From positions 19,021 to 83,020 of the forward strand of contig JANLTJ010000025.1 in NCBI GenBank assembly GCA_031362885.1: a stretch of 64,000 nt of DNA. Direction: 5' to 3'. Shown here piece by piece: positions 40,759-55,509 of this stretch. The DNA comes from Betaproteobacteria bacterium. GTDB taxonomy: Bacteria > Pseudomonadota > Gammaproteobacteria > Burkholderiales > JACQAP01. The notes beneath the pieces were generated by a model that saw only the letters and a list, made by a program, of their open reading frames with translations, did not search any database and had not been told where the DNA came from. Each line of letters begins with the position of its first letter. Position 1 is the stretch's first letter. Position numbers and translations under genes: made by a program.

Positions 40759-41052
40759 GTGAGGATAATTGCTCTCAAGGCACTACGCGAATTCTGGGGA
40801 AAGCATGCATCAGCCGAAGTGCCACTCCGTGCGTGGTACGCGATTGCAAGCCGTGCGCAATGGCGCAGTCCCGCAGACGTGAAGGCGGCCTACCGGGCCG
40901 CGAGTTTTCTGGGCGGGAATCGGGTGGTGTTCAACATCAAGGGCAATGAGTTCCGGCTGGTCGTTGCCGTGCACTACAACCGCGGACTGATGTTTGTTCG
41001 TTTCGTGGGCACCCACCAGCAATATGACCGCATCAACGCCGAAGACATTTGA
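40759..41052 (+). CDS. higB: HigB-type mRNA interferase toxin (HigB_toxin family)
   Basis: 97 aa with GTG start. MRIIALKALREFWGKH...AWY......W.SPADVKA.Y..ASFLGGNRVVFNIKGNEFRLVV...Y....FVRFVGTH..YD.I. Confidence 0.85.
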   Translation: MRIIALKALREFWGKHASAEVPLRAWYAIASRAQWRSPADVKAAYRAASFLGGNRVVFNIKGNEFRLVVAVHYNRGLMFVRFVGTHQQYDRINAEDI

Positions 41053-41062
41053 GAGCAAGGAA

Positions 41063-41437
41063 ATGGACGTGCGACCGATCAGAACAAAACGCGACTATCT
41101 TGCCGCGCTAAAGGAAGTCGAGACGCTGTGGGACTCCCGTCCGGGATCGACCGAGTCGGACCAGCTTGAAGTTTTGACGTTGCTGATTCAAGCATACGAA
41201 TCCGACCACTACCCGATCCCCGAACCCGACCCGATCGAGCTTCTGCTACACGTCATGGAGTCCCGCGCGTTGACGCGAAAGGACTTGGAGCCCTACATTG
41301 GATCGCGTGCGCGTGTGGCCGAGGTACTCAAGAGAGTTCGGCCATTGACGCTCGAAATGATTCGCCGATTATCCGAGGGATTGGATATTCCTGCCGATGT
41401 GCTCGTGCGTCGTTATGAGTTGACCGAGGCCGCGTGA
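41063..41437 (+). CDS. higA: HigA-type HTH antitoxin
   Basis: Trimmed to ATG 41063. IRTKRDYLAALKEVETLWDSRPGSTESDQLEVLTLLIQAYE..HYPIP.PDPIE and a C-terminal HTH. Lies immediately after higB. Confidence 0.85.
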   Translation: MDVRPIRTKRDYLAALKEVETLWDSRPGSTESDQLEVLTLLIQAYESDHYPIPEPDPIELLLHVMESRALTRKDLEPYIGSRARVAEVLKRVRPLTLEMIRRLSEGLDIPADVLVRRYELTEAA

Positions 41438-41493
41438 ATTTGGGTCCTGGTGGAGTCTTAAACCACGAATCGGCAAGAAGCGGGACTAAGACA

Positions 41494-41823
41494 ATGATTG
41501 AAAGCAAACACCTGGAAACCAAAGGCTGGAAGATTGGCTCTGCCCGGGAGTTCCTTGATCTGAACGATCAGGAAGAGGCCTACATCGAACTGCGCCTCAA
41601 GCTGGCCGACGCGTTGAAGCGTCAACGAATCAGCCGGAACCTGACGCAAGGCGATCTCGCAAGGGCTGTGAGTTCGAGCCAGTCGCGAGCCGCAAAAATG
41701 GAAGCTGGTGATTCCTCCGTTTCGCTCGATCTTCTGGTTCGGCCGCTCCTGGCCATGGGTGCGTCCAACAGCGATCCCGCAAAAATTATCGCGGGCCCCC
41801 ATGTTCGTCAGAGGACTGCCTAG
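41494..41823 (+). CDS. XRE-family HTH protein, antitoxin-like, with no adjacent toxin
   Basis: Trimmed to ATG 41494. LTQGDLARAVSSSQSRAAKMEAGDSSVSLDLLVRPLLAMG is typical of a type II antitoxin HTH. Confidence 0.65.
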   Translation: MIESKHLETKGWKIGSAREFLDLNDQEEAYIELRLKLADALKRQRISRNLTQGDLARAVSSSQSRAAKMEAGDSSVSLDLLVRPLLAMGASNSDPAKIIAGPHVRQRTA

Positions 41824-41920: not shown

Positions 41921-42994
41921 TCATAGGTCGTCCGTGGAGACGTCCTTGTTGAATACTTTCTTCAACATGAGGCGAAGGCGAAACTTGATCGCGCCGCCGT
42001 CATTTGGCGACTGTGCGTAACGATCAAACTCGATCATCTGGAGATCGACGTTCTTGGTTTTACCTTTTTCCATCAACTCCCGATTCGCGGCACGGAGCTT
42101 CTCGAAATCAAGCAGCTTCTTGCGCGAGATCTCGGCCGCCCAATCATTCTTATGGGCCACCCGGAAGAGATGGTAATAGAGCATCACCATGCCTACCTGA
42201 CGCAGCAGCGTCTCCTTGTCGGTGAAAACGCGCGCCATGTGTTCGCAGGTCTCCTGCGTCTGCTTGAGGAACACCGGCATCCGCGTTCGAGATTGATCGA
42301 CGAAGTCGTCCACGAAGTCATCCAAGCGTGCTTTCTTAGTGTCAACGACCTGACCTTCATGCTCCGCGAGCAGGAACTTCGTGGCTAGGTCGTAGTGGCG
42401 ATAGCGGCGGTTCTCGAACGGTAGCTTCTTGACGAAGAAGGCTTCCCTCGACAATTTTCTGACCGCCCCCGGGATTGGGCCGCCATAGGCATTGCGCTTC
42501 TCGGCAGCCGTCAGCGGCGCGGCCTCGTTCAAGCGCGAGAACATTTCCTCGATCAGTTCCAGATCGTCGGTTTCGATCAGTATCACAGAGAGCAGGAAAC
42601 CGTCGAAATCTGCCTTTAGATCGGGATACTGTTGCCCCAGCTCCCGATACGTCATGCCGGGGGCCTTGACCTTCTCATCGCGGAACAGCTTAAAGTCGTC
42701 AGCCAGAGCGATCCTGCCGTCGATGAAGCTCCAAAGGGTTTCCAGCCGCTGCTTGCCGTCCACGATGGCGAACTCGTAGGTCTTGCCGCCCTTGACGAAT
42801 GGCTGCGGGAACTTGTGCAGGTATATCTTCGGAACATCGAACTTGTTGAACACAGTGTCCAGCAAGAGTTGCCGATTGTCGGGCGCCCAGATGTTCCCCA
42901 AACGCTGATAGTCCGGGTCGAGCTGAATGCGGTCGCGCATTCGGTAGATTTGCCAGACCGTGCGGTCGCGCAACTCAGTGATGTTGAAGGTCAT
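41921..42994 (-). CDS. DUF262 (ParB/GmrSD N-terminal NTPase-like) protein lacking a DUF1524/HNH nuclease domain
   Basis: 357 aa. Motifs: LDPDYQR, IVDGKQRLETL (a DGQQR-motif variant), and MFSRLNEAAPLTAAEKRNA. The C-terminal ~170 aa are helical and unassigned. Confidence 0.8.
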   Translation of the reverse strand: MTFNITELRDRTVWQIYRMRDRIQLDPDYQRLGNIWAPDNRQLLLDTVFNKFDVPKIYLHKFPQPFVKGGKTYEFAIVDGKQRLETLWSFIDGRIALADDFKLFRDEKVKAPGMTYRELGQQYPDLKADFDGFLLSVILIETDDLELIEEMFSRLNEAAPLTAAEKRNAYGGPIPGAVRKLSREAFFVKKLPFENRRYRHYDLATKFLLAEHEGQVVDTKKARLDDFVDDFVDQSRTRMPVFLKQTQETCEHMARVFTDKETLLRQVGMVMLYYHLFRVAHKNDWAAEISRKKLLDFEKLRAANRELMEKGKTKNVDLQMIEFDRYAQSPNDGGAIKFRLRLMLKKVFNKDVSTDDL

Positions 42995-43740
42995 TGCAGC
43001 AGCTCCTTGGCCACATCCGCCACGCGATCAAGTTCCGGAAAGAGGGTAAGCGCCGTGAAACCTAGCAACGCCAACTCTTTTCGCAAGTTCTTCTTCGCGG
43101 TCGCCGGGACGACCCACCGCCAAGCATGCTTGGCCGCGCCAATGGATTCGATGGGCGCGTGTTCACGATGATTGATCGTGAACACGCCGAGCTGGGCGGC
43201 CATGCGCGCGGTATTGCGCGGCCCCATGATCGCCACGGGGCTCATCACGGTAGGCGAACCGTCCACGCGGCTTGGCAGATAGTTATCCAGCACATCATCC
43301 ACACCGAAGGCCGGAATTTCATTGGCGAAGCGGAATTTTGTGACCCGCGCCTCGGCGTTGAGCGCGAGCGGATCAAGACACCATACCGCAGCGTCCTTGC
43401 GCAAATGTTTGTCCTCGCTCACCGCGAAGTAAAGCGCCGCGAGCGGGCTTTCGCTCCAATCCAGGAGCCGAGTCGGCGCGCGGTGATGCTGCATCATGAA
43501 CATCCATTCCCACTCCGTCGTTGGCGCGCGATCCAGATGCGGGACAGCGTTCTGCATGAAGCGCTTGCGCAACGCCGATTCCGCCGCTAGGTGTTTATTC
43601 TGCCGAGCCAATGATGGAACCAGCGTCCAGCCGCTCGCGGATTGGCCGCGGAACCAGACACCCGGACCGTCGCGTGCCTGTTTCATGAGTGTGTCCAGCA
43701 ACGCGCCGACCGACCTGACTTTGGTGTCCCTATGTCTCAT
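42991..43740 (-). CDS. FRG-domain protein
   Basis: 249 aa. VWFRGQSASGW.LVPSL.R, MMQHHRAPTRLLDWSESPLAALYFA, ARMAAQLGVFT. ATGA overlap with the DUF262 gene. Confidence 0.8.
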   Translation of the reverse strand: MRHRDTKVRSVGALLDTLMKQARDGPGVWFRGQSASGWTLVPSLARQNKHLAAESALRKRFMQNAVPHLDRAPTTEWEWMFMMQHHRAPTRLLDWSESPLAALYFAVSEDKHLRKDAAVWCLDPLALNAEARVTKFRFANEIPAFGVDDVLDNYLPSRVDGSPTVMSPVAIMGPRNTARMAAQLGVFTINHREHAPIESIGAAKHAWRWVVPATAKKNLRKELALLGFTALTLFPELDRVADVAKELLQ

Positions 43741-44470
43741 CGCCGCCGTCTTCCGCGCCCGGAGTCAACTTCTCGGTCTCCGGCAATTTCCCAGTGAAGA
43801 ACGCCTCGATCTTGGCGGCGATCTGTTCGGGTGTCAGCGGATTCAAGCCCAAGCCGAGCCTATCCACATACTTGCGGCCTGGATGCAATGTGTCCCACGA
43901 TGACCGCACTTGGCCGGAGCGCCCTGCGCCCGGCGTCTTGCTGCCGAAACCGTCGATCACGCGGTTCCAGAGAGGCTGGAATTTTTCAATTAGGACGTTT
44001 TCTCCCAGAGGAATCCAGATGTCGTCGACCGTTAGCGCCCGATAGTAGAAGTCGCCAATCGCGAGGGTCGAGGTCTCCTTGATGGTTGTTGCGTGTTGGC
44101 GCAGCCGGTCGCGTAGCGCAGTGCCCTTCTCCGCATCGAAACTCAAGCCGCCCTTTCGCGCACCCTTCGGCACCGCCTTCCCAACATAGATAGGCTGCTC
44201 GAAACGATCACCTTCGTTCAATTCCTTGATGCGCTTGTAGGCAAAGAACGCGCCGATGTAGTAAATCGCATATACCCCCGCCCCAACAAGGTGTGCAGTT
44301 TCGTTCAGCGGACGCACGGGTGAGCGCAACAAAGCGTCGGCGACGCTTTCCCCCAAGTTCATTTTGGCCAGCGGGTTATATGGTTCCTTCGCGCTATGCT
44401 TTCCAGCGTGCTCTGATCGGTGGGCTTTGCCCCTACCATTATTCCGCGTCTTCAGATCGCACTTTCTCAT
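43730..44470 (-). CDS. Eco29kI-family GIY-YIG restriction endonuclease
   Basis: Start set to ATG 44470, forming an ATGA overlap with the dcm stop. GVYAIYYIG...PIYVGKAVPKGARKGG...LRDRLRQH...IWIPLGENVLIEKFQPLWN..IDGFGSK.PGAGR......SSWDTLHPGR. Confidence 0.8.
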   Translation of the reverse strand: MRKCDLKTRNNGRGKAHRSEHAGKHSAKEPYNPLAKMNLGESVADALLRSPVRPLNETAHLVGAGVYAIYYIGAFFAYKRIKELNEGDRFEQPIYVGKAVPKGARKGGLSFDAEKGTALRDRLRQHATTIKETSTLAIGDFYYRALTVDDIWIPLGENVLIEKFQPLWNRVIDGFGSKTPGAGRSGQVRSSWDTLHPGRKYVDRLGLGLNPLTPEQIAAKIEAFFTGKLPETEKLTPGAEDGGDET

Positions 44471-45660
44471 GCCGCCCTGCTTGCACACGCAGTCGGACAA
44501 TCTATGGCGCCCAAGGTCGCTGCCACTGACGCCGCAATGATTTCGCCTAGGCGCACGGGCACTGCATTGCCCAGCTGGCGCATGGTTTCCGTCCAAGAGC
44601 CGCAGAAAGTGTAGTCATCCGGAAAGGTCTGCAATCTGGCCGCTTCGCGCACAGTAAAGTAGCGCACCGAGCCATCTGGCCTCAGCAACATGTTTTCGCC
44701 GCCTGGTACCCCATGGTCACCCGCTTTCAAAGTCTTGGCCGGTTCATCCAGCGGACTACCGGTGTGGCCAGGGTAGCTGCGCGCCCCAGGATTGAAGACG
44801 TGATTGGCGATGCCGTTCCGTAGATTGTTTTCCGGATCGGGTAAGCCCACTAACGCGTCGCGTACCGTACCCCATGGTTGTTCATGGAATAAATTTTCAT
44901 TGCGCAAACGGACGAGTCGAGACGTCAGTTTCGGATGTGGAGCCGGACGACCGCGCTTGACCACGCGATGCCGTTCCCAATAGTTGCCGGTTACCCACTG
45001 ATCGCGTAGCAAAGCATCCTCGGAATGCGTCACTTCCGGAAATGACCACTTGACACCCAAATCCGAGCGGAAGCCCACGAGGAACACGCGCTCTCGTCGT
45101 TGCGGGACACCGTAGTCTGCGGCGTTCAACAGCCGAAACACAACGTTGTAATTGGCGGCGCTGCGGTTGCTGGTATGTTGGCGCTCCAATCGCACGCAGT
45201 GCATCTGCCAGGATTCGCCGTGCTTTCGCGTCAGGTAGGGATGTGAAAGCTGCAGATGAACATATTCAAAGTAGGACGCGAAAGTTTGCCGAAGTAGTCC
45301 CTTCACGTTTTCGAAGACGAAGGCCTTGGGCTGCAGCTCGCGCACGGCGCGCACGGCTTGCGGGAACATATCCCGGTCATCCATGTGGCCACGGTGTTTG
45401 CCGCCGAGGGAAAACGGTTGGCACGGTGGTCCACCGGATACCACCATCACGTCGCCGCTTACGGTGCCGTAATCGAATTCGCGGGCATCGCATTCAAACA
45501 GCGGCCATTGCTCCACGTCACGGGCGTGATTGCGTTGATTGAAGCGGAAAGTCTCGCAGGAATCATGATCCCACTCGATCACCGCAGCATGGTTGAAGCC
45601 TGCGCGTCCCATGCCCATGGCCAAGCCGCCCGCTCCAGCAAACAGTTCAACGCTTCGCAC
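44467..45660 (-). CDS. dcm: DNA (cytosine-5)-methyltransferase
   Basis: 397 aa. Motif I: ELFAGAGGLAMG. Motif IV: GGPPCQPFS. Motif VI: ENVKGLL. Also QRRERVFLVG and a C-terminal GNAVPV. Confidence 0.93.
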   Translation of the reverse strand: MRSVELFAGAGGLAMGMGRAGFNHAAVIEWDHDSCETFRFNQRNHARDVEQWPLFECDAREFDYGTVSGDVMVVSGGPPCQPFSLGGKHRGHMDDRDMFPQAVRAVRELQPKAFVFENVKGLLRQTFASYFEYVHLQLSHPYLTRKHGESWQMHCVRLERQHTSNRSAANYNVVFRLLNAADYGVPQRRERVFLVGFRSDLGVKWSFPEVTHSEDALLRDQWVTGNYWERHRVVKRGRPAPHPKLTSRLVRLRNENLFHEQPWGTVRDALVGLPDPENNLRNGIANHVFNPGARSYPGHTGSPLDEPAKTLKAGDHGVPGGENMLLRPDGSVRYFTVREAARLQTFPDDYTFCGSWTETMRQLGNAVPVRLGEIIAASVAATLGAIDCPTACASRAA

Positions 45661-46060
45661 CTAGATATCTCCCAATCCTGCTTGCCAGTCGCGCTGTGTC
45701 GCGCAACTGGCATTCCCATATCGTCAATACCCCCCAACCCAACCCACGCAGCGCTCGCATATTACGCGAGTCGCGCTGGACATTGCTTTCAAGCTTAGAT
45801 AGCCAAAATTCGCCCCGCGACTTTGGCAGTCTGGCTAGCGCGCAGGCCTTATGCCGGTGCCAGAAGCAGCCGTGAACCAGAATTACCTTGCTGCGGGCTG
45901 GAAAAACCAAGTCTGGCGTGCCTGGCAAATCGCGCGAATGCAGCCGGTAGCGGTAGCCAAGGCTATGCACCAGACGCCGTACCAGAAGTTCGGGTTTGGT
46001 GTCCTTACCACGCACGAGGGCCATCCGAATTGAGCGTTGTCGCGGGTTGAGCGTGTCCAT
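45647..46060 (-). CDS. vsr: very-short-patch repair endonuclease
   Basis: Trimmed to ATG 46060, preceded by AGGGGGA. RGKDTKPEL..R..L...G.RYRLH...LPG.PD.VF...K..I.VHGCFWH.H. Its 3' end overlaps the dcm start by 14 nt. Confidence 0.9.
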   Translation of the reverse strand: MDTLNPRQRSIRMALVRGKDTKPELLVRRLVHSLGYRYRLHSRDLPGTPDLVFPARSKVILVHGCFWHRHKACALARLPKSRGEFWLSKLESNVQRDSRNMRALRGLGWGVLTIWECQLRDTARLASRIGRYLGAKR

Positions 46061-46587
46061 TCGTTTCCCCCTTTCAATGCTCGGCAAACAACGGGACTCT
46101 ATCGCCAATACTGTTTCATTATTACGAAGTATCTACGTGACTGAAATGCTCTTTTCCTAGGCGATTCGTATGAGCGTTGCATACGGCTCGGCAGGAAAGC
46201 TCGTCGAAGCGTGCGGCACTTTGGGTTGAGTCGTCACTCTATACCGCTAAACTTGTTGCGCCACATTACACCATGTCGATTTACACGAGAATCTCGAAAA
46301 GTGCCTTGCCCGTCTCCACTCACGGCTTCAGCGGCCGCCACCTTAGCTGGGTCGGACCACCGCAAGTTTCTGATTCCCAGATTCAAGAGCAAGAAAAAGA
46401 GCCCGCATGGCCTCTTAAAGATATGTTTTCAGGCCAGAAAATCGCCCTGCAATCAGTAGAGGTTCTCCGCTTTGAACTACTTCTTCCGACCGATCTCCTT
46501 CCCCGAGATCACGAATGTTCCCTCGCCCGAATCGTGAACCGTCTCCGGAAACTTCGGTTATGTCGCAATCTGCGGCTTTGCCAGGAT

Positions 46588-46672
46588 CGGAGTCTTGCTT
46601 TTTGCCCTCTCTGCGCAGCCGGTCGCCGAGACCTCAAGCATGGGCAAGAGGCCGTACCCCACGCAACCGACC
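46588..46672. repeat. ~85-bp dispersed repeat, copy 1
   Basis: cttgctttttgccctctctgcgcagccggtcgccgagacctcaagcatgggcaagaggccgtaccccacgcaaccgac. Aligns with 49866-49955 at about 80% identity by eye. Overlaps the 3' end of higA. Confidence 0.7.
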
Positions 46673-46933
46673 TTTCATGCCGGGCTCGGCGGTCTTGATA
46701 TCGTAGGCCGACTGGAGATTCAACCAATACTGCGGCGACTCCCCGAATGCCTTGCCAAACAGCAGGGCGAGCTCCGCGGTTACCGGTCGCGTGCCCTTGA
46801 TGATGTGAGAGATCCGCATTGACGACACACCAATGGTGCGTGCGAACTCCGCCTGCGAATTACCGAGGTCTTCCAGAATTTCCTTGAGAAATTCCCCCGG
46901 ATGTACCGCAGGCAAGCCGTTCTTGATAGCCAT
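46634..46933 (-). CDS. higA: HigA-family antidote HTH protein
   Basis: 99 aa. VHPGEFLKEILEDLG.SQAEFARTIGVSSMRISHIIKGTRPVTAELALLFGKAFG.SPQYWLNLQ..YD. Confidence 0.9.
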   Translation of the reverse strand: MAIKNGLPAVHPGEFLKEILEDLGNSQAEFARTIGVSSMRISHIIKGTRPVTAELALLFGKAFGESPQYWLNLQSAYDIKTAEPGMKGRLRGVRPLAHA

Positions 46934-46945
46934 AATTCTTCTACC

Positions 46946-47227
46946 TCAGTGGTAATCGACGATTTCGACATCGAAGGCCTCGCCGCTTTCGAATCGAAAA
47001 CAGACTCGCCATTGTTCGTTGATGCGGATGCTCCACTGTCCCTTCCTGTCGCCTTTCAACGGCTCCAGGCGGTTGGACGGGGGAAAACGAAGATCGTCAA
47101 TTGCCGTGGCCGCGTTGAGCTGGGTAAGTCGCATCACCGCACGGGTGCGTATCTCCAATGGAATCCGTCGCGACTTTCCGGTTGCGAAGAAGCGTACAGT
47201 TTCCGAAGACGCGAACGAACGAATCAC
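46946..47227 (-). CDS. higB: HigB (plasmid-maintenance killer, RelE superfamily) toxin
   Basis: 93 aa. MIRSF....T..FF.TGKSRRIP.EI......RLTQLNAA....DLR.PPSNRLE.LKGDRKGQWSIRINEQWRVCFRF..G.A.DVEIVDYH. Confidence 0.9.
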   Translation of the reverse strand: MIRSFASSETVRFFATGKSRRIPLEIRTRAVMRLTQLNAATAIDDLRFPPSNRLEPLKGDRKGQWSIRINEQWRVCFRFESGEAFDVEIVDYH

Positions 47228-51510: not shown

Positions 51511-52605
51511 TCAGATGGGCATGGCTGGGTCGTCCTCACCCCACGCGAGTATGGCACCGCAACCGCGCGTTTCGTAAAGATCAATCCGATCCAATTGAGG
51601 AAGAACAGGTCCGACCTTGTTCTTTATCCAGCGTGCGAGGCTTGCCGGGTCGTTATCCTCGAGCCCGGCAAGTTCATGCAGCGGCCGATGATCGAGTTCC
51701 AGGAAGGTCGGTCCAAACAGTTCCTTCACGTCACCGAAATCGATTGTCCAACCCATGATCTGGTCTATCGGTGCATTCAAGTGCAATCGAAGTGAATAGG
51801 TGTGCCCGTGAATCCGTCGACGCGGATCTTCGTCGGGCGCGCGTTTCAGTCTAAGCGAACTATCGAGGCTCAGTTCTTTCCAAATGCGGTAGCGCCGGCC
51901 ATCGAAGTGCGCTCCGCAGGTGGCCGTTTCGTAGACTGTCACCCACGATAACTCGGGCAAAGTCGGCTTGAGTCGATTCCAGATCCAGCTTCCGATCAAT
52001 TCGCTAGTCGGGTTTTCGAGACCAGGGATGTCGTTAAGGCACGCCTCGTGAAACTCGGCATGAATCGGCGCCCAACTCTCGTCCAGGCGATCGTAGTCGA
52101 GCCCGATATCTCTTTTGCCTAAATCGACATTGGCGTGGAGGATGACTTCAAATCCGTGACCATGCATGCGTCCACACTTGTGGTGTGTCGGCACGTTCGG
52201 GAGTCGATGCGCCGATTCAAAAATGTAGCGCCGCCAGATGTGCGCCTGCTCATTCCGATCAAGATCCACGCCTTCATGCAAAGTGCTCTGAATGCCGATT
52301 TGCTCAACTCCTGGAAGTTCAAACTGCGTCCGCACCCAACGCGCGAGATTCTCATCCGTGGGTTGATTGAGCCTGTCATTCAGAAATTGGTAATCGAGCG
52401 GCGCGATGCATCGGGCAAGCTTTTCGCGAAGCTCGCCAACCTCACCCCCAGGGAATGTCGCCCAGCCGGACGGCAATCCTACCCGGATTTTCGCAAGAAA
52501 ACTGTGCCCATGCAGGCGTCTAGATCGATGACCTTCGGGAAGTACTGAAACTTGCCGAGCGGCCTCGAATGCTGCCGCCGCCACGTACAGAAGACGTTCG
52601 TTCAA
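51511..52605 (-). CDS. queD: triple-tandem PTPS/QueD (6-carboxytetrahydropterin synthase) fusion protein
   Basis: 364 aa made of three ~120-aa T-fold repeats. Only the middle repeat keeps the full catalytic signature (ESAHRL...[11 protein letters not shown]). Repeats 1 (EAARQV...SRRLHGHSF) and 3 (SSLRL...RRRIHGHTY) lack the Cys and the first His. ATGA overlap with queC. Confidence 0.85.
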
Positions 52606-53312
52606 GCCGCCGTCCTTCCGAAACGCTCAGTGAGAGGGTCTGCCTTGCCCAGCTCGGCAAAGCCTTTGTTTCGGAGGATGCAGGAGTCGCATCTGCCGCA
52701 CGGCTCGCCATTCGGGCCAGGATCGTAACAACTGCTCGTGAGCGCGTAGTCAGTCGCTAGCTCTAGGCCGGTCTTGATGATTTCCGCCTTGGTCATCCTA
52801 ATAAGCGGGGTGTGAATCTTCAGTTGTTGTGATCTTTCAACCCCGGTTTTCGCCGCCAGGTTCGCCATTCGCTCATAGGCTTCGATGTACTCCGGACGAC
52901 AATCGGGGTAGCCACTGTAATCGAGCGCATTGACCCCGATGAAGATGTCACTCACTCCCAGCACCTCCGCCCAAGCAAGTGCATAGCTCAGAAAAATTGT
53001 GTTGCGGGCCGGCACATACGTTACCGGTATCCCATGATACATCTCGGCCACCGGACGGTCCTTCGGCACCCCGATATCGCTGGTCAGTGCCGACCCGCCA
53101 AAAGCGCGCAGGTAGATTTCAATGACGATGTGCTTCGCCACGCTCATTCGCGCCGCAATATCTCGCGCCTTTTCTATCTCGACCTTGTGTCGCTGACCAT
53201 ACCGAAAGCTCATGGCATAAGTCTAGAACCCCTCTTTGCGTGCAATCGCAAGGACCGTGGTTGAGTCAACCCCGCCACTCAACAAAACGACCGCTTTCTT
53301 ATTCAGAATCAT
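52602..53312 (-). pseudogene. queC: 7-cyano-7-deazaguanine synthase with in-frame TAG at codon 30
   Basis: From ATG 53312: MILNKKAVVLLSGGVDSTTVLAIARKEGF, then TAG (53223-53225), then [12 protein letters not shown]. It continues into an otherwise intact QueC with the C-terminal Zn cluster C..C..C..R. The stop replaces the usually acidic residue before the .YA.SF.YGQRH block. Confidence 0.85.
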
Positions 53313-53651: not shown

Positions 53652-55289
53652 CTAATTCAAGGCGTCTCTTACAAAGGAACCGAGCGCACCGGAAAGGCGG
53701 GAGAGGCCGAATCGCGCGGAGAGCAGGCCACGCGAGTTTCTTCTGACAGGAGCAGCGGACCGGTTTTTACTCGCCTGATCGAGCAAGCCGTCGATCAGCG
53801 GAAGAATTTCATCGAAGCTCTGGTAGCGGTCCCCCGGGTCCGGAGCGAGCATTCCCGCAATCATCTGCTTGAGTTCTTTGGGCAGTGACCGGAATGACGA
53901 ATTCTGGATGAGATGGCCTTTGTTCTCGGTCGGGGTCGCGCCGGTGAGCATTTCGGAGAAAATCATCCCTGCGGAAAAAATATCTGAGCGCACCGACTTC
54001 GGCTCATCGGCAACGCCGTACCAGTTTCCCTCTCCTGCATTCCCGGCGTAATGCTCATCTAGGCCGATGTCCGAGAGCTTCGCGTGACCATCGGCGCACA
54101 TCAGTATATTGGTGGGGCGCAGATTGCCGTGGATGATCCGGTTCTTGTGCAGGAAGGAAAGGCCATCGCAGATTTCGCGCGCCGTGGTCAACACCTGTTC
54201 CCATGGACGCAGGTTCGCGAGGCGGTCCTTCAGGCTGCCCCCGGAGAGGTACTCCATCACGATGATCGATGTTGCGCCGCTGCTCGCGGTGCCGTAGACA
54301 TCCACAACGTGAGGGTGCTTGATATTGGCTAGAAGTTTCGCATGCGACAAAACAGGTTTGGCACTGAAGATTTTCTTGATGACCAGGATCTGGCGGGCCG
54401 CCCGGTTCTCGAACAAATAGACGGCACCGAAGCGGTGTTCCCTGATGACATCGAGCAGGCCGAACTTTTCGGTCAGGGTCTTGAAGCCCTCGACTGCCTG
54501 CGCTTTCTGCTCCTGGCGGATATGTGCGCCTTGGAGAAATGCGAGCAAGGCGTCCTTGACGGCGTCGGCGCTGGCGAATCGATCGGCGGGAGCGGTGCGC
54601 AGGCAGTTGACGATGATTTCGTCCAAGCGCCGCGGAACTGCCGGATCGATGGACGAGGGCAGCACGCCGATGACCGGCTTTCTCCCGGTAAAGAGCTCGT
54701 ACATCACCACACCCAATGAGTAAATATCGCTCGCCATGGTGACGCCACCGGTGCCGGATTTCTGCTCTGGTGACATGTAGCTCGGGGTGCCCATCACCGG
54801 CCCGCTTGGCGCCGCGTCGTCGCCGCCGAACAAGTGGGCGATACCGAAGTCGGCGACCATGACGTTGCCTTCGCCATCGATCAGGATGTTGGCGGGCTTG
54901 ATGTCGAGGTGAATCACGCCGTTTCTGTGCGCATAGCCCAAGGCCTTGCACATCTGGACAATGACGTCCACTTTCTGCTGAAAATCGTATTTCTTTCCGG
55001 CGATGATTCTGCCCAGATCCGTGCCTTCGACGAACTCCATCACGAAATAAGGCACGCAATCGGCGATGCCGCGATCGATGACATGGATGATGTTCGGGTG
55101 GTTGAGGCGCGCGATGATGAGTGACTCGCGGTTGAAACACTCGACGACTTCCGGGTCGTCGGTCAGGGCACGGGAAAGCACCTTGATCGCCACCGTACGC
55201 CCGAGCGAACCCTGCACGCCCTTGTACACCATGGCCATGCCGCCTTCACCGATTTTCTCCACCAACTGATAATCGCCGAACTGTGCCAT
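53652..55289 (-). CDS. cytoplasmic tandem Ser/Thr kinase - pseudokinase protein
   Basis: Trimmed to ATG 55289 (MAQFGDYQLVEKIGEGGMAMVYKG). Domain 1: VAIK, HLDIKPANIL, ADFG, SPEQ. Domain 2: VIKK, HGNLRPTNIL (catalytic Asp replaced by Asn), SDIG in place of DFG. No TM segment and no PASTA, FHA or TPR modules. Confidence 0.85.
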   Translation of the reverse strand: MAQFGDYQLVEKIGEGGMAMVYKGVQGSLGRTVAIKVLSRALTDDPEVVECFNRESLIIARLNHPNIIHVIDRGIADCVPYFVMEFVEGTDLGRIIAGKKYDFQQKVDVIVQMCKALGYAHRNGVIHLDIKPANILIDGEGNVMVADFGIAHLFGGDDAAPSGPVMGTPSYMSPEQKSGTGGVTMASDIYSLGVVMYELFTGRKPVIGVLPSSIDPAVPRRLDEIIVNCLRTAPADRFASADAVKDALLAFLQGAHIRQEQKAQAVEGFKTLTEKFGLLDVIREHRFGAVYLFENRAARQILVIKKIFSAKPVLSHAKLLANIKHPHVVDVYGTASSGATSIIVMEYLSGGSLKDRLANLRPWEQVLTTAREICDGLSFLHKNRIIHGNLRPTNILMCADGHAKLSDIGLDEHYAGNAGEGNWYGVADEPKSVRSDIFSAGMIFSEMLTGATPTENKGHLIQNSSFRSLPKELKQMIAGMLAPDPGDRYQSFDEILPLIDGLLDQASKNRSAAPVRRNSRGLLSARFGLSRLSGALGSFVRDALN

Positions 55290-55509
55290 TGCCAGACCCG
55301 AAGAGTATTGCCGTTCGCAATGGCTATCGGCCCATCGGCACCGAACTTGAGGCCAATACCCGGGAAGCGCCATGACCGGCACGACCAGACGCCAACGGGC
55401 AAACACGTCCGAAGCCGGTGGATCGGGCTACCGGGCCAGATTTCATGATCCACGTCAAAGTATAGCCGCCTGATTGCGGGCATTCTGGCGGCGAATCTGT
55501 CGTCATTCC

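Follow-up and report, generated by a model that had tools for sequence, protein, structure and literature searches.

The 64,000-nucleotide (nt) stretch of Betaproteobacteria bacterium DNA analysed here (contig JANLTJ010000025.1, positions 19,021 to 83,020; the window) carries an operon of five genes, in which vsr, the gene for a C5-cytosine DNA methyltransferase (MTase; dcm) and the gene for an Eco29kI-family restriction endonuclease (REase) are followed by the genes for an FRG-domain protein and a DUF262 protein. We have found that the FRG and DUF262 genes form an obligate, widespread two-gene pair and that this pair is linked specifically but asymmetrically to restriction-modification (R-M) systems with a C5-MTase. 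The reading which we favour, and to which we give an even chance, is that two separable units are combined here in one translationally coupled operon: the R-M cassette with Vsr (Unit 1) and a sensor/effector pair functionally tied to 5-methylcytosine (m5C) (Unit 2). Judged from the sequences, the R-M operon joined to the conserved FRG–DUF262 module is a credible candidate for a new anti-phage module. As far as the literature searched shows, both the strict pairing and the recurrent association with one family of C5-MTases are new; the search found no paper containing both 'FRG domain-containing' and DUF262.

The pairing was surveyed in 80 reference-genome loci anchored on the DUF262 protein (34-81 % identity), the open reading frames (ORFs) of these and the other related loci being crude longest-ORF calls. 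Wherever upstream DNA was available (78 loci), the gene immediately 5′ of DUF262 encodes an FRG protein and has the same orientation; the other two loci end at contig edges, and four apparent exceptions were resolved on inspection as artefacts of the longest-ORF calls. The two genes, which the initial annotation had described as unexplained additions to the R-M system, are thus not chance neighbours. The pair was found in at least eight phyla or groups (Proteobacteria, Acidobacteriota, Actinobacteria, Chloroflexi, Planctomycetota, Verrucomicrobia, Gemmatimonadota, Spirochaetia and others). The most frequent junction between the genes is the 4-nt overlap (49 of 74 loci), and the pairwise divergences of the two proteins co-vary strongly (Mantel r = 0.84). 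The homologues of the two proteins are about equally numerous (1005 and 926 clusters), and their lists have contigs in common. Adjacent FRG and DUF262 genes are also annotated on Ralstonia megaplasmids, where the FRG protein is 35 % identical, and on a Hymenobacter plasmid. The window is Burkholderiales-like, and its 61-67 % identity with the copies in Acidobacteriota or Syntrophobacteraceae therefore indicates horizontal spread. A second pair of genes coding for 357 and 248 aa in one of the loci (L016) proved to be a coincidence, the products being a membrane protein and a short-chain dehydrogenase/reductase.

Genes of R-M systems recur around the pair in different phyla. A dcm, vsr or Eco29kI-type REase gene was found within 5 kb in 44 of the 80 loci, and R-M or vsr genes at that distance in 25 of the 42 loci with at least 5 kb of DNA on both flanks. 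The nearest R-M gene is separated from the pair by a median gap of 124 nt and lies at most 500 nt away in 31 of the 44 loci. A C5-MTase is encoded in 40 pair loci, in 37 of them an Eco29kI-type enzyme, and non-C5 MTases are essentially absent near the pair in the survey loci. The composite defence system proposed in the initial annotation stood or fell with the co-occurrence of FRG and DUF262 genes with each other and with R-M or vsr genes; as such linkage is conserved, the idea survives. As a single five-gene system, however, it does not hold, since the arrangement is divisible, the cassette mostly occurs without the pair and 36 of the 80 pairs occur without R-M genes. In the reverse direction, the pair is rare. 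Among the metagenomic loci anchored on the REase, 36 had adequate flanks and 4 of these carried the pair, so that the FRG–DUF262 extension is found in only about 11 % of the related vsr–dcm–REase cassettes. Similarly, none of the 38 plasmid-collection records with an Eco29kI-type MTase was among the 21 records carrying this DUF262 family.

Such linkage might result from co-mobilisation without functional coupling, if the pair and the vsr–dcm–REase cassette were both mobile cargo and their fusion in the window incidental. The operon is indeed bracketed by two toxin-antitoxin gene pairs and lies in a dip of GC content, integrases, insertion sequence elements or Gabija-like genes occur near other loci, both units are also found separately, and a Vibrio cholerae locus combines a decayed R-M system with an intact pair. 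The linkage was nevertheless observed whatever the divergence of the pair (12/16, 11/19, 7/23 and 10/22 loci in the four score bins) and in about 30 gene orders and orientations, on both sides and both strands of the pair; the first four genomes inspected displayed four different layouts. These arrangements and the short median gap speak against neutral cargo, as does the involvement of at least three different C5-MTase subfamilies. A neighbour-joining tree shows the MTases with and those without a linked pair intermingled (16 parsimony changes; mean with shuffled labels, 20.7), and the association is therefore not due to one hitch-hiking clade. The divergence of the DUF262 protein tracks that of the MTase (Mantel r = 0.57) about as well as that of Vsr does (r = 0.63). 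Neutral hitch-hiking predicts neither specificity for one MTase family nor the persistence of the MTase in loci without the REase, and we consider co-mobilisation without coupling quite improbable.

The features of the operon are listed in Table 1. All five domain calls exceed the curated Pfam thresholds. The genes overlap at each junction as initially described: vsr and dcm share 14 nt, dcm and the REase gene 4 nt (ATGA), the REase and FRG genes 11 nt, and the FRG and DUF262 genes 4 nt (ATGA). Logan contig L169, which comes from an independent assembly and gene caller, has the same gene lengths (137, 397, 246, 249 and 357 aa) and the same overlaps. These overlaps speak for co-transcription in the window, but the proposed obligatory co-transcription does not extend to the relatives, in which order and orientation vary and 70 of 103 R-M genes are on the strand of the pair. 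Since only the FRG/DUF262 overlap is conserved and the junction between the R-M genes and FRG varies, the five-gene overlapping operon is one arrangement among many, although the commonest one. Only for the REase gene is the start ambiguous, with an alternative ATG at 44362; a conserved N-terminal FNPL motif is encoded 5′ of this ATG, so that 44470 is the nearest start which retains it. The ORF list and a Pfam scan revealed no family-matching ORF in the non-coding stretch upstream of vsr. A scan of the operon for σ70-type promoters and terminators gave none on the minus strand, with counts at the level of shuffled sequences, and no nearly identical DNA was found in the plasmid collection.

Table 1 Features of the five-gene operon in the window
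Feature	Position	Strand	Remarks
vsr	45647-46060	minus	137 aa; very-short-patch T:G mismatch endonuclease; first gene of the operon
dcm (C5-cytosine DNA methyltransferase, M.Eco29kI-type)	44467-45660	minus	397 aa; GTG start
REase gene (Eco29kI-family GIY-YIG type II restriction endonuclease)	43730-44470	minus	246 aa
FRG-domain protein gene	42991-43740	minus	249 aa; proposed effector of the two-gene module
DUF262 protein gene, no nuclease domain	41921-42994	minus	357 aa; proposed sensor of DNA or its modification
Non-coding stretch 5′ of vsr	46061-46633	minus	573 nt; presumed promoter region of the operon

To judge from its sequence matches, Unit 1 is an ordinary and complete Eco29kI-family type II R-M system plus Vsr, sufficient by itself. 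Vsr matches PF03852 (94 bits, E = 4.4e-27) and TIGR00632 (139.9 bits, cutoff 97.85), and as a T:G mismatch endonuclease it would repair the mismatches arising by m5C deamination. The MTase matches PF00145 (199 bits, 2.1e-58) and the PADLOC model MTase_II (1.8e-132) and is 48 % identical to M.Eco29kI of plasmid pECO29 over its full length, the variable region included. The REase matches PF09517 (RE_Eco29kI; 194 bits, cutoff 30.8, 1.8e-57) and is 38.7 % identical to R.Eco29kI; the GIY-YIG catalytic positions Y67/Y70/Y71, Y95, R122, H126, E157 and N169 are invariant in an alignment of 26 homologues. The MTase probably methylates CCGCGG. Of all 6-bp palindromes, only one is more strongly depleted in the window than this site, with 32 copies present where 53 were expected (z = −2.9), a weak indication that is consistent with this specificity. 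The initial annotation had taken the R-M system with Vsr for complete on its own. This is in agreement with the prevalence of the order vsr–dcm–REase, the commonest arrangement in the REase-anchored sample (42 of 80 metagenomic loci), and with a cassette lacking the pair on a Paraburkholderia plasmid. On that plasmid (P. aromaticivorans, NZ_CP051517.1, locus L085, 7796-12337), a PIN-domain gene and a SIR2-family gene, the latter followed by a gene for an ATP-binding protein, are located 3′ of the vsr–dcm–Eco29kI cassette; accessory defence modules may quite generally be accommodated at this site. The REases encoded beside the pair belong to two distinct subfamilies, both linked to FRG–DUF262 (alignment A4). 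One of them has an N-terminal extension of about 70 aa and FGKHGD in place of FGNHxPG, and the REases of L006, L009, L011, L014, L025, L030-L032 and L082 are split from the rest in this alignment. The low Mantel correlations of the REase with the MTase (0.26) and with DUF262 (0.19) are explained by these two subfamilies.

The only Pfam match of the DUF262 protein is PF03235 (GmrSD_N; 55 bits, 2e-14), and the Pfam scan showed no DUF1524/HNH domain. The motifs Q30-R31...W36, D79-G-K-Q-R83 and F152-xxx-N156 are intact and invariant in the alignment. An AlphaFold2 (AF2) model of high confidence (predicted local distance difference test, pLDDT, 86.7) combines an alpha/beta domain at the N-terminus with a C-terminal half of 190 residues that is entirely helical. 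Its best fold matches are BrxU (top), ParB-CDP, Noc and SspE; the global template modelling (TM) scores are low, which is to be expected when multidomain proteins differ in the packing of their domains. Among the PADLOC models, Menshen NsnA is matched best (4.8e-21, but only over model positions 50-268 of 385), and PD-T4-2_A (PDLC04027) is matched with 1.1e-11 (residues 12-301 to model positions 39-330 of 363). The sequence and the model suggest a ParB-like NTPase with a helical DNA-binding domain, whose presumed role is the NTP-dependent sensing of DNA or of the modifications it carries. A 'ParB-DUF262 + ParBDB DNA-binding domain' sensor architecture was described for NsnA, DndB, GmrSD and SspE (PMC12065111), and the protein of the window appears to fit it, as far as the helical C-terminal domain of the model goes. 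The absence of a nuclease domain, emphasised in the initial annotation, was thus borne out, but it is less unusual than implied, as a layout with a separate effector is known from the validated defence systems PD-T4-2, Menshen and Dazbog.

The FRG protein matches PF08867 (92 bits, 4.6e-26) and 14 PADLOC models of the PDC-S15 candidate (best PDLC04938, 1.6e-51). Across 61 diverse homologues, R31, G32, R46, F61, L92, D94, F105, R179 and Q183 are invariant, and this set of residues looks more like the active site of an enzyme than like a scaffold. Burroughs and Aravind (2020) are said to be the primary source for FRG as a fold similar to ADP-ribosyltransferases (ART). In two papers which cite it (PMC9503650; bioRxiv 2024.07.30.605764), FRG is predicted to be an effector of the ART superfamily, possibly an NADase. 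Together with its status as a PADLOC defence candidate, this makes the earlier statement that FRG has no assigned function out of date. No HEPN match was found in the FRG protein, and permissive Pfam scans of eight diverse FRG proteins yielded PF08867 only and no Pfam-clan match. Fusions of FRG with other domains, which might serve as a Rosetta stone, were not seen among the best 150 of 15,377 representatives, whose lengths are 143-374 aa. A different FRG subfamily on a Burkholderia latens plasmid has a neighbour other than DUF262, which is consistent with FRG as a portable effector.

A housekeeping or regulatory function of the two proteins as R-M accessories was also considered: control of the expression or establishment of the R-M system in the manner of DndB, its stabilisation or addiction, or the processing of m5C damage together with Vsr. 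DndB regulates the dnd operon. It is a protein of the ParB/DUF262 superfamily with the same two-domain layout (PMC12065111), and Eco29kI-type systems, according to PMC3113576, have no classical C protein and rely on promoter architecture. The retention of vsr beside the pair in 30 of the 80 loci would also suit such a role. Most Eco29kI-type cassettes, however, work without the pair, which itself persists in many loci without R-M genes nearby. Moreover, a regulator needs no strictly co-evolving partner of about 250 aa with invariant polar residues, and PADLOC independently flagged FRG proteins as a defence candidate. We therefore regard these roles as highly improbable; like co-mobilisation, they are less likely than the favoured reading and than a modification-triggered module independent of the resident MTase.

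The loci in which R-M genes are incomplete are informative as to which of them accompanies the pair. In L020 an Eco29kI-type MTase gene overlaps the FRG gene by 14 nt and is followed by DUF262, without REase and without vsr, the cluster being flanked by a fabD-like acyltransferase gene and a nuoH-like gene. The pair is accompanied by dcm and vsr, but by no recognisable REase gene, in three loci (L036, L080 and L083); no such gene is seen either in L071, which has DUF262, dcm and vsr and in which the DNA upstream of DUF262 is off the contig. L010 contains only a 107-aa ORF in the space expected for the REase. In L070 the pair occurs with a different C5-MTase and a NotI-like REase, and in L063 an HNH endonuclease gene lies between an Eco29kI-type MTase gene and the pair. 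Although the pair is present in only about six of 2.9 million viral contigs, a C5-MTase gene is located just upstream of it in three of them: L171 and L172 carry dcm, a 178-aa ORF, FRG, DUF262 and an integrase gene, and in L176, a phage with Rha regulators, a different C5-MTase subfamily is encoded 16 nt upstream of a distant FRG–DUF262 pair. The MTase rather than the REase thus looks like the constant partner of the pair. REase loss from R-M systems is common, and the REase-less loci are therefore suggestive but not decisive.

Two further observations concern such variant loci. In V. cholerae strain 35D (L062, WNZI01000006.1, 7268-11062), the Eco29kI-type dcm and REase genes are each split into two ORFs, and this apparently decayed R-M system is located directly 5′ of FRG and DUF262 genes that are intact. 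Here the pair may have outlived its R-M system in nature. Additional, unannotated ORFs between the R-M genes and FRG were found in Achromobacter xylosoxidans (L004, 6474-7244, 256 aa) and in L171 (1617-2153, 178 aa, without a Pfam match), and may be further accessory components or REase remnants.

Since the only recurrent neighbour of the pair is a C5-MTase, sometimes without a REase, we infer a functional tie between Unit 2 and cytosine-5 methylation. In the likeliest version, the DUF262 protein would take the resident m5C mark as the 'self' reference, in analogy to the reading of phosphorothioates by SspE, and DNA without the mark or with a distorted mark would fire FRG, the effector action of which might be NAD+ depletion or ADP-ribosylation. 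FRG–DUF262 would then be a second, nuclease-independent arm which backs up the REase. This self-reference version accounts best for the specificity for one MTase family, the retention of the MTase without the REase and the co-divergence of the proteins. A more novel version, which we think fairly unlikely, has FRG–DUF262 as a second reader of the mark of the linked C5-MTase: the ParB-like NTPase would inspect DNA for m5C and, on under-methylated or foreign DNA, activate an ART-fold enzyme, which would ADP-ribosylate the DNA, like DarT, or burn NAD+. If it were true, this would be methylation-guided restriction without a nuclease, and L020 and L176 would be complete modification/restriction systems of a new type.

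Several points weigh against a tie to m5C. No MTase was found within 5 kb of 36 of the 80 pairs, some of which lie amid housekeeping genes. Twenty Ralstonia megaplasmids carry the pair, but none of the 38 plasmid records encoding an Eco29kI-type MTase comes from Ralstonia; therefore, either an MTase would act in trans or the pair would work without one. The MTase-only loci might be due simply to the common loss of REase genes, the two sets of loci were sampled differently (one anchored on DUF262, the other on the REase), and host phylogeny is a confounder in the Mantel correlations. The CCGCGG site is deduced from 48 % and 39 % identity and a modest site depletion. As for the effector, the ART fold is a prediction by others; FRG profiles of 28 and 61 sequences gave no match to the Protein Data Bank (PDB) sequences, and the AF2 model of the FRG protein, built from a 28-sequence alignment, is unusable (pLDDT 45.5). 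The structure check of both proteins envisaged at the outset was thus informative for the DUF262 protein with its confident model and helical C-terminal half, but not for FRG.

The main rival is an independent type IV-like module triggered by foreign modified cytosines (5-hydroxymethylcytosine, hmC; glucosyl-hmC; foreign methylation), which Eco29kI-type cleavage is unable to handle. It would stand beside the R-M system for complementary coverage and co-regulation, with no biochemical dependence on the resident MTase. This would explain the stand-alone pairs (36 of 80 loci, the Ralstonia megaplasmids and the Hymenobacter plasmid) better than the favoured reading does. Examples of genomes with a stand-alone pair are those of Corallococcus exercitus (NZ_CP102577.1), a member of the Binatia (OZ241744.1) and Ralstonia solanacearum strains with megaplasmids of the CP049792 type. 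In the 36 loci, no Pfam family occurred in more than 2 of the 118 neighbouring ORFs, and many of the neighbours are housekeeping genes. The DUF262 domains of GmrSD, BrxU and TgvAB sense modified cytosines and that of Dazbog is thought to sense methylated DNA, PD-T4-2, which has the most similar full-length A subunit, protects against T4, and the embedding of such modules in R-M loci is documented (BrxU in BREX, TgvAB in type I R-M). We would, however, expect a generic partner to be indiscriminate, which is difficult to reconcile with the fact that nearly all of the linked MTases belong to one C5 family. Tight MTase–FRG–DUF262 operons without a REase, as in L020 and L176, are left unexplained, and a sensor of cytosine modification would need to tolerate the m5C of its own host. 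We regard this rival as possible but, on balance, somewhat doubtful.

The surroundings of the operon in the window contain further genes of note. A HigB/HigA-type toxin-antitoxin pair is located to its left on the plus strand (HigB_toxin, 40759-41052; helix-turn-helix (HTH) antitoxin, about 41063-41437) and another one to its right on the minus strand (HigA-like HTH protein, 46634-46933; HigB-like toxin, 46946-47227). The GC content dips to 0.54-0.56 in the operon region, compared with about 0.60. The two flanking HigBA pairs and the GC dip suggest a small horizontally acquired island between metabolic genes; no convincing borders in the form of flanking repeats, direct or inverted, or of tRNA genes were found. 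An XRE-family HTH ORF (41434-41823, plus strand, 129 aa), which matches HTH_3, HTH_31 and HTH_37, converges on the 3′ end of the DUF262 gene. At its position in L169, a gene for 109 aa with weak HTH_37, HTH_31 and HTH_3 matches was called on the opposite strand. This ORF could be a third antitoxin-like or regulator gene, or the regulator of the operon. Genes of the 7-deazaguanine pathway are located about 8 kb from the defence island (51511-53213 and 53652-55406, both on the minus strand): an unusually long QueD-like ORF (364 aa) with three stretches of the 6-pyruvoyl-tetrahydropterin synthase (PTPS) type overlaps a QueC gene, and a Ser/Thr protein kinase gene adjoins them. In a Lysobacter locus (L002), too, a PTPS gene lies some 7 kb away from the FRG–DUF262 pair. 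The presence of PTPS genes near both defence loci is probably a coincidence.

If the pair is a working immune module, FRG would represent a new class of effector for the DUF262 sensor family, and the FRG domain, with more than 15,000 representative clusters, would gain a testable role. The one-sided, family-specific link to a C5-MTase is unusual among defence-island associations. If the m5C status guides an effector which is not a nuclease, the principle of modification as a self mark, known from R-M, Dnd/Ssp and BREX, would be extended to a new chemistry. For annotation, this FRG subfamily within PADLOC PDC-S15 is better treated as a two-gene system, and Eco29kI-type R-M loci are worth checking for the FRG–DUF262 add-on.

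Precedents are known for DUF262 sensors that lack a nuclease and have a separate effector, for methylation-based defence loci that house a DUF262 module, for FRG proteins as defence candidates and for R-M of the Eco29kI type with Vsr, and the operon can be compared with each of them. The closest two-gene system is PD-T4-2, reportedly from the work of Vassallo et al. in 2022. In E. coli it consists of a DUF262 protein A and a HEPN protein B (PMC10952713). Both systems have a nuclease-less DUF262 protein of about 360 aa, alignable over nearly the full length of the A subunit, and a separately encoded effector. In the window, however, the partner is FRG instead of HEPN and the effector gene comes first, and a linkage to C5-MTase R-M systems has not been reported for PD-T4-2 in the literature searched. 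Membership was rejected because the A-subunit match was not accompanied by the HEPN B partner. NsnA of Menshen NsnABC, a proposed sensor made up of ParB-DUF262 and a helical ParBDB DNA-binding domain (PMC12065111), is the top PADLOC match and shares the N-terminal alpha/beta and C-terminal helical layout of the window model. Menshen was rejected since NsnB (ATPase) and NsnC (nuclease) were not found adjacent to the DUF262 gene, the neighbours being the XRE HTH ORF downstream and FRG upstream. In Dazbog, a validated defence system, DUF262 also has a separate effector, but neither protein had a DzbA or DzbB model listed at an E-value limit of 10, with HMMER filters dropping most matches above about 0.1, and this assignment was rejected as well.

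Modules of the GmrSD kind occur inside Hma, BREX and type I R-M systems. The initial annotation considered a modification sensor within an R-M locus paradoxical; BrxU in BREX and TgvAB in the type I R-M locus of V. cholerae are precedents, and the combination is not in itself paradoxical. In both, a DUF262 module lies within, or is fused to, a defence locus based on methylation, has the same orientation and is proposed to give complementary cover. They differ from the window in carrying a DUF1524 His-Me nuclease, whereas we found an FRG effector, no nuclease and an m5C host MTase, and the FRG–DUF262 association is far more family-specific. The BREX and type I R-M hosts of BrxU and TgvAB methylate adenine, not cytosine, and the cytosine case described here therefore stays special. 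The NTPase motifs QR, DGxQR and FxxxN of GmrSD, BrxU and SspE are present in the DUF262 protein, but membership in this group was rejected because the DUF1524 His-Me (HNH-like) nuclease was not found and the 190 C-terminal residues are all-helical. In SspABCD–SspE and Dnd, a DUF262 NTPase reads a DNA modification written by the host and controls an effector, which is the logic proposed here; the mark in SspABCD–SspE is a phosphorothioate and the effector a fused DUF1524 nickase, whereas the m5C dependence of FRG–DUF262 is suggested by gene linkage alone. PDC-S15, to which the FRG protein of the window corresponds by its HMM matches, is by its PADLOC name taken as a single-gene candidate, whereas the FRG subfamily described here is strictly two-gene with DUF262. 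Finally, Unit 1 is an ordinary relative of the Eco29kI system of pECO29, in which R precedes M and neither vsr nor accessory genes are present.

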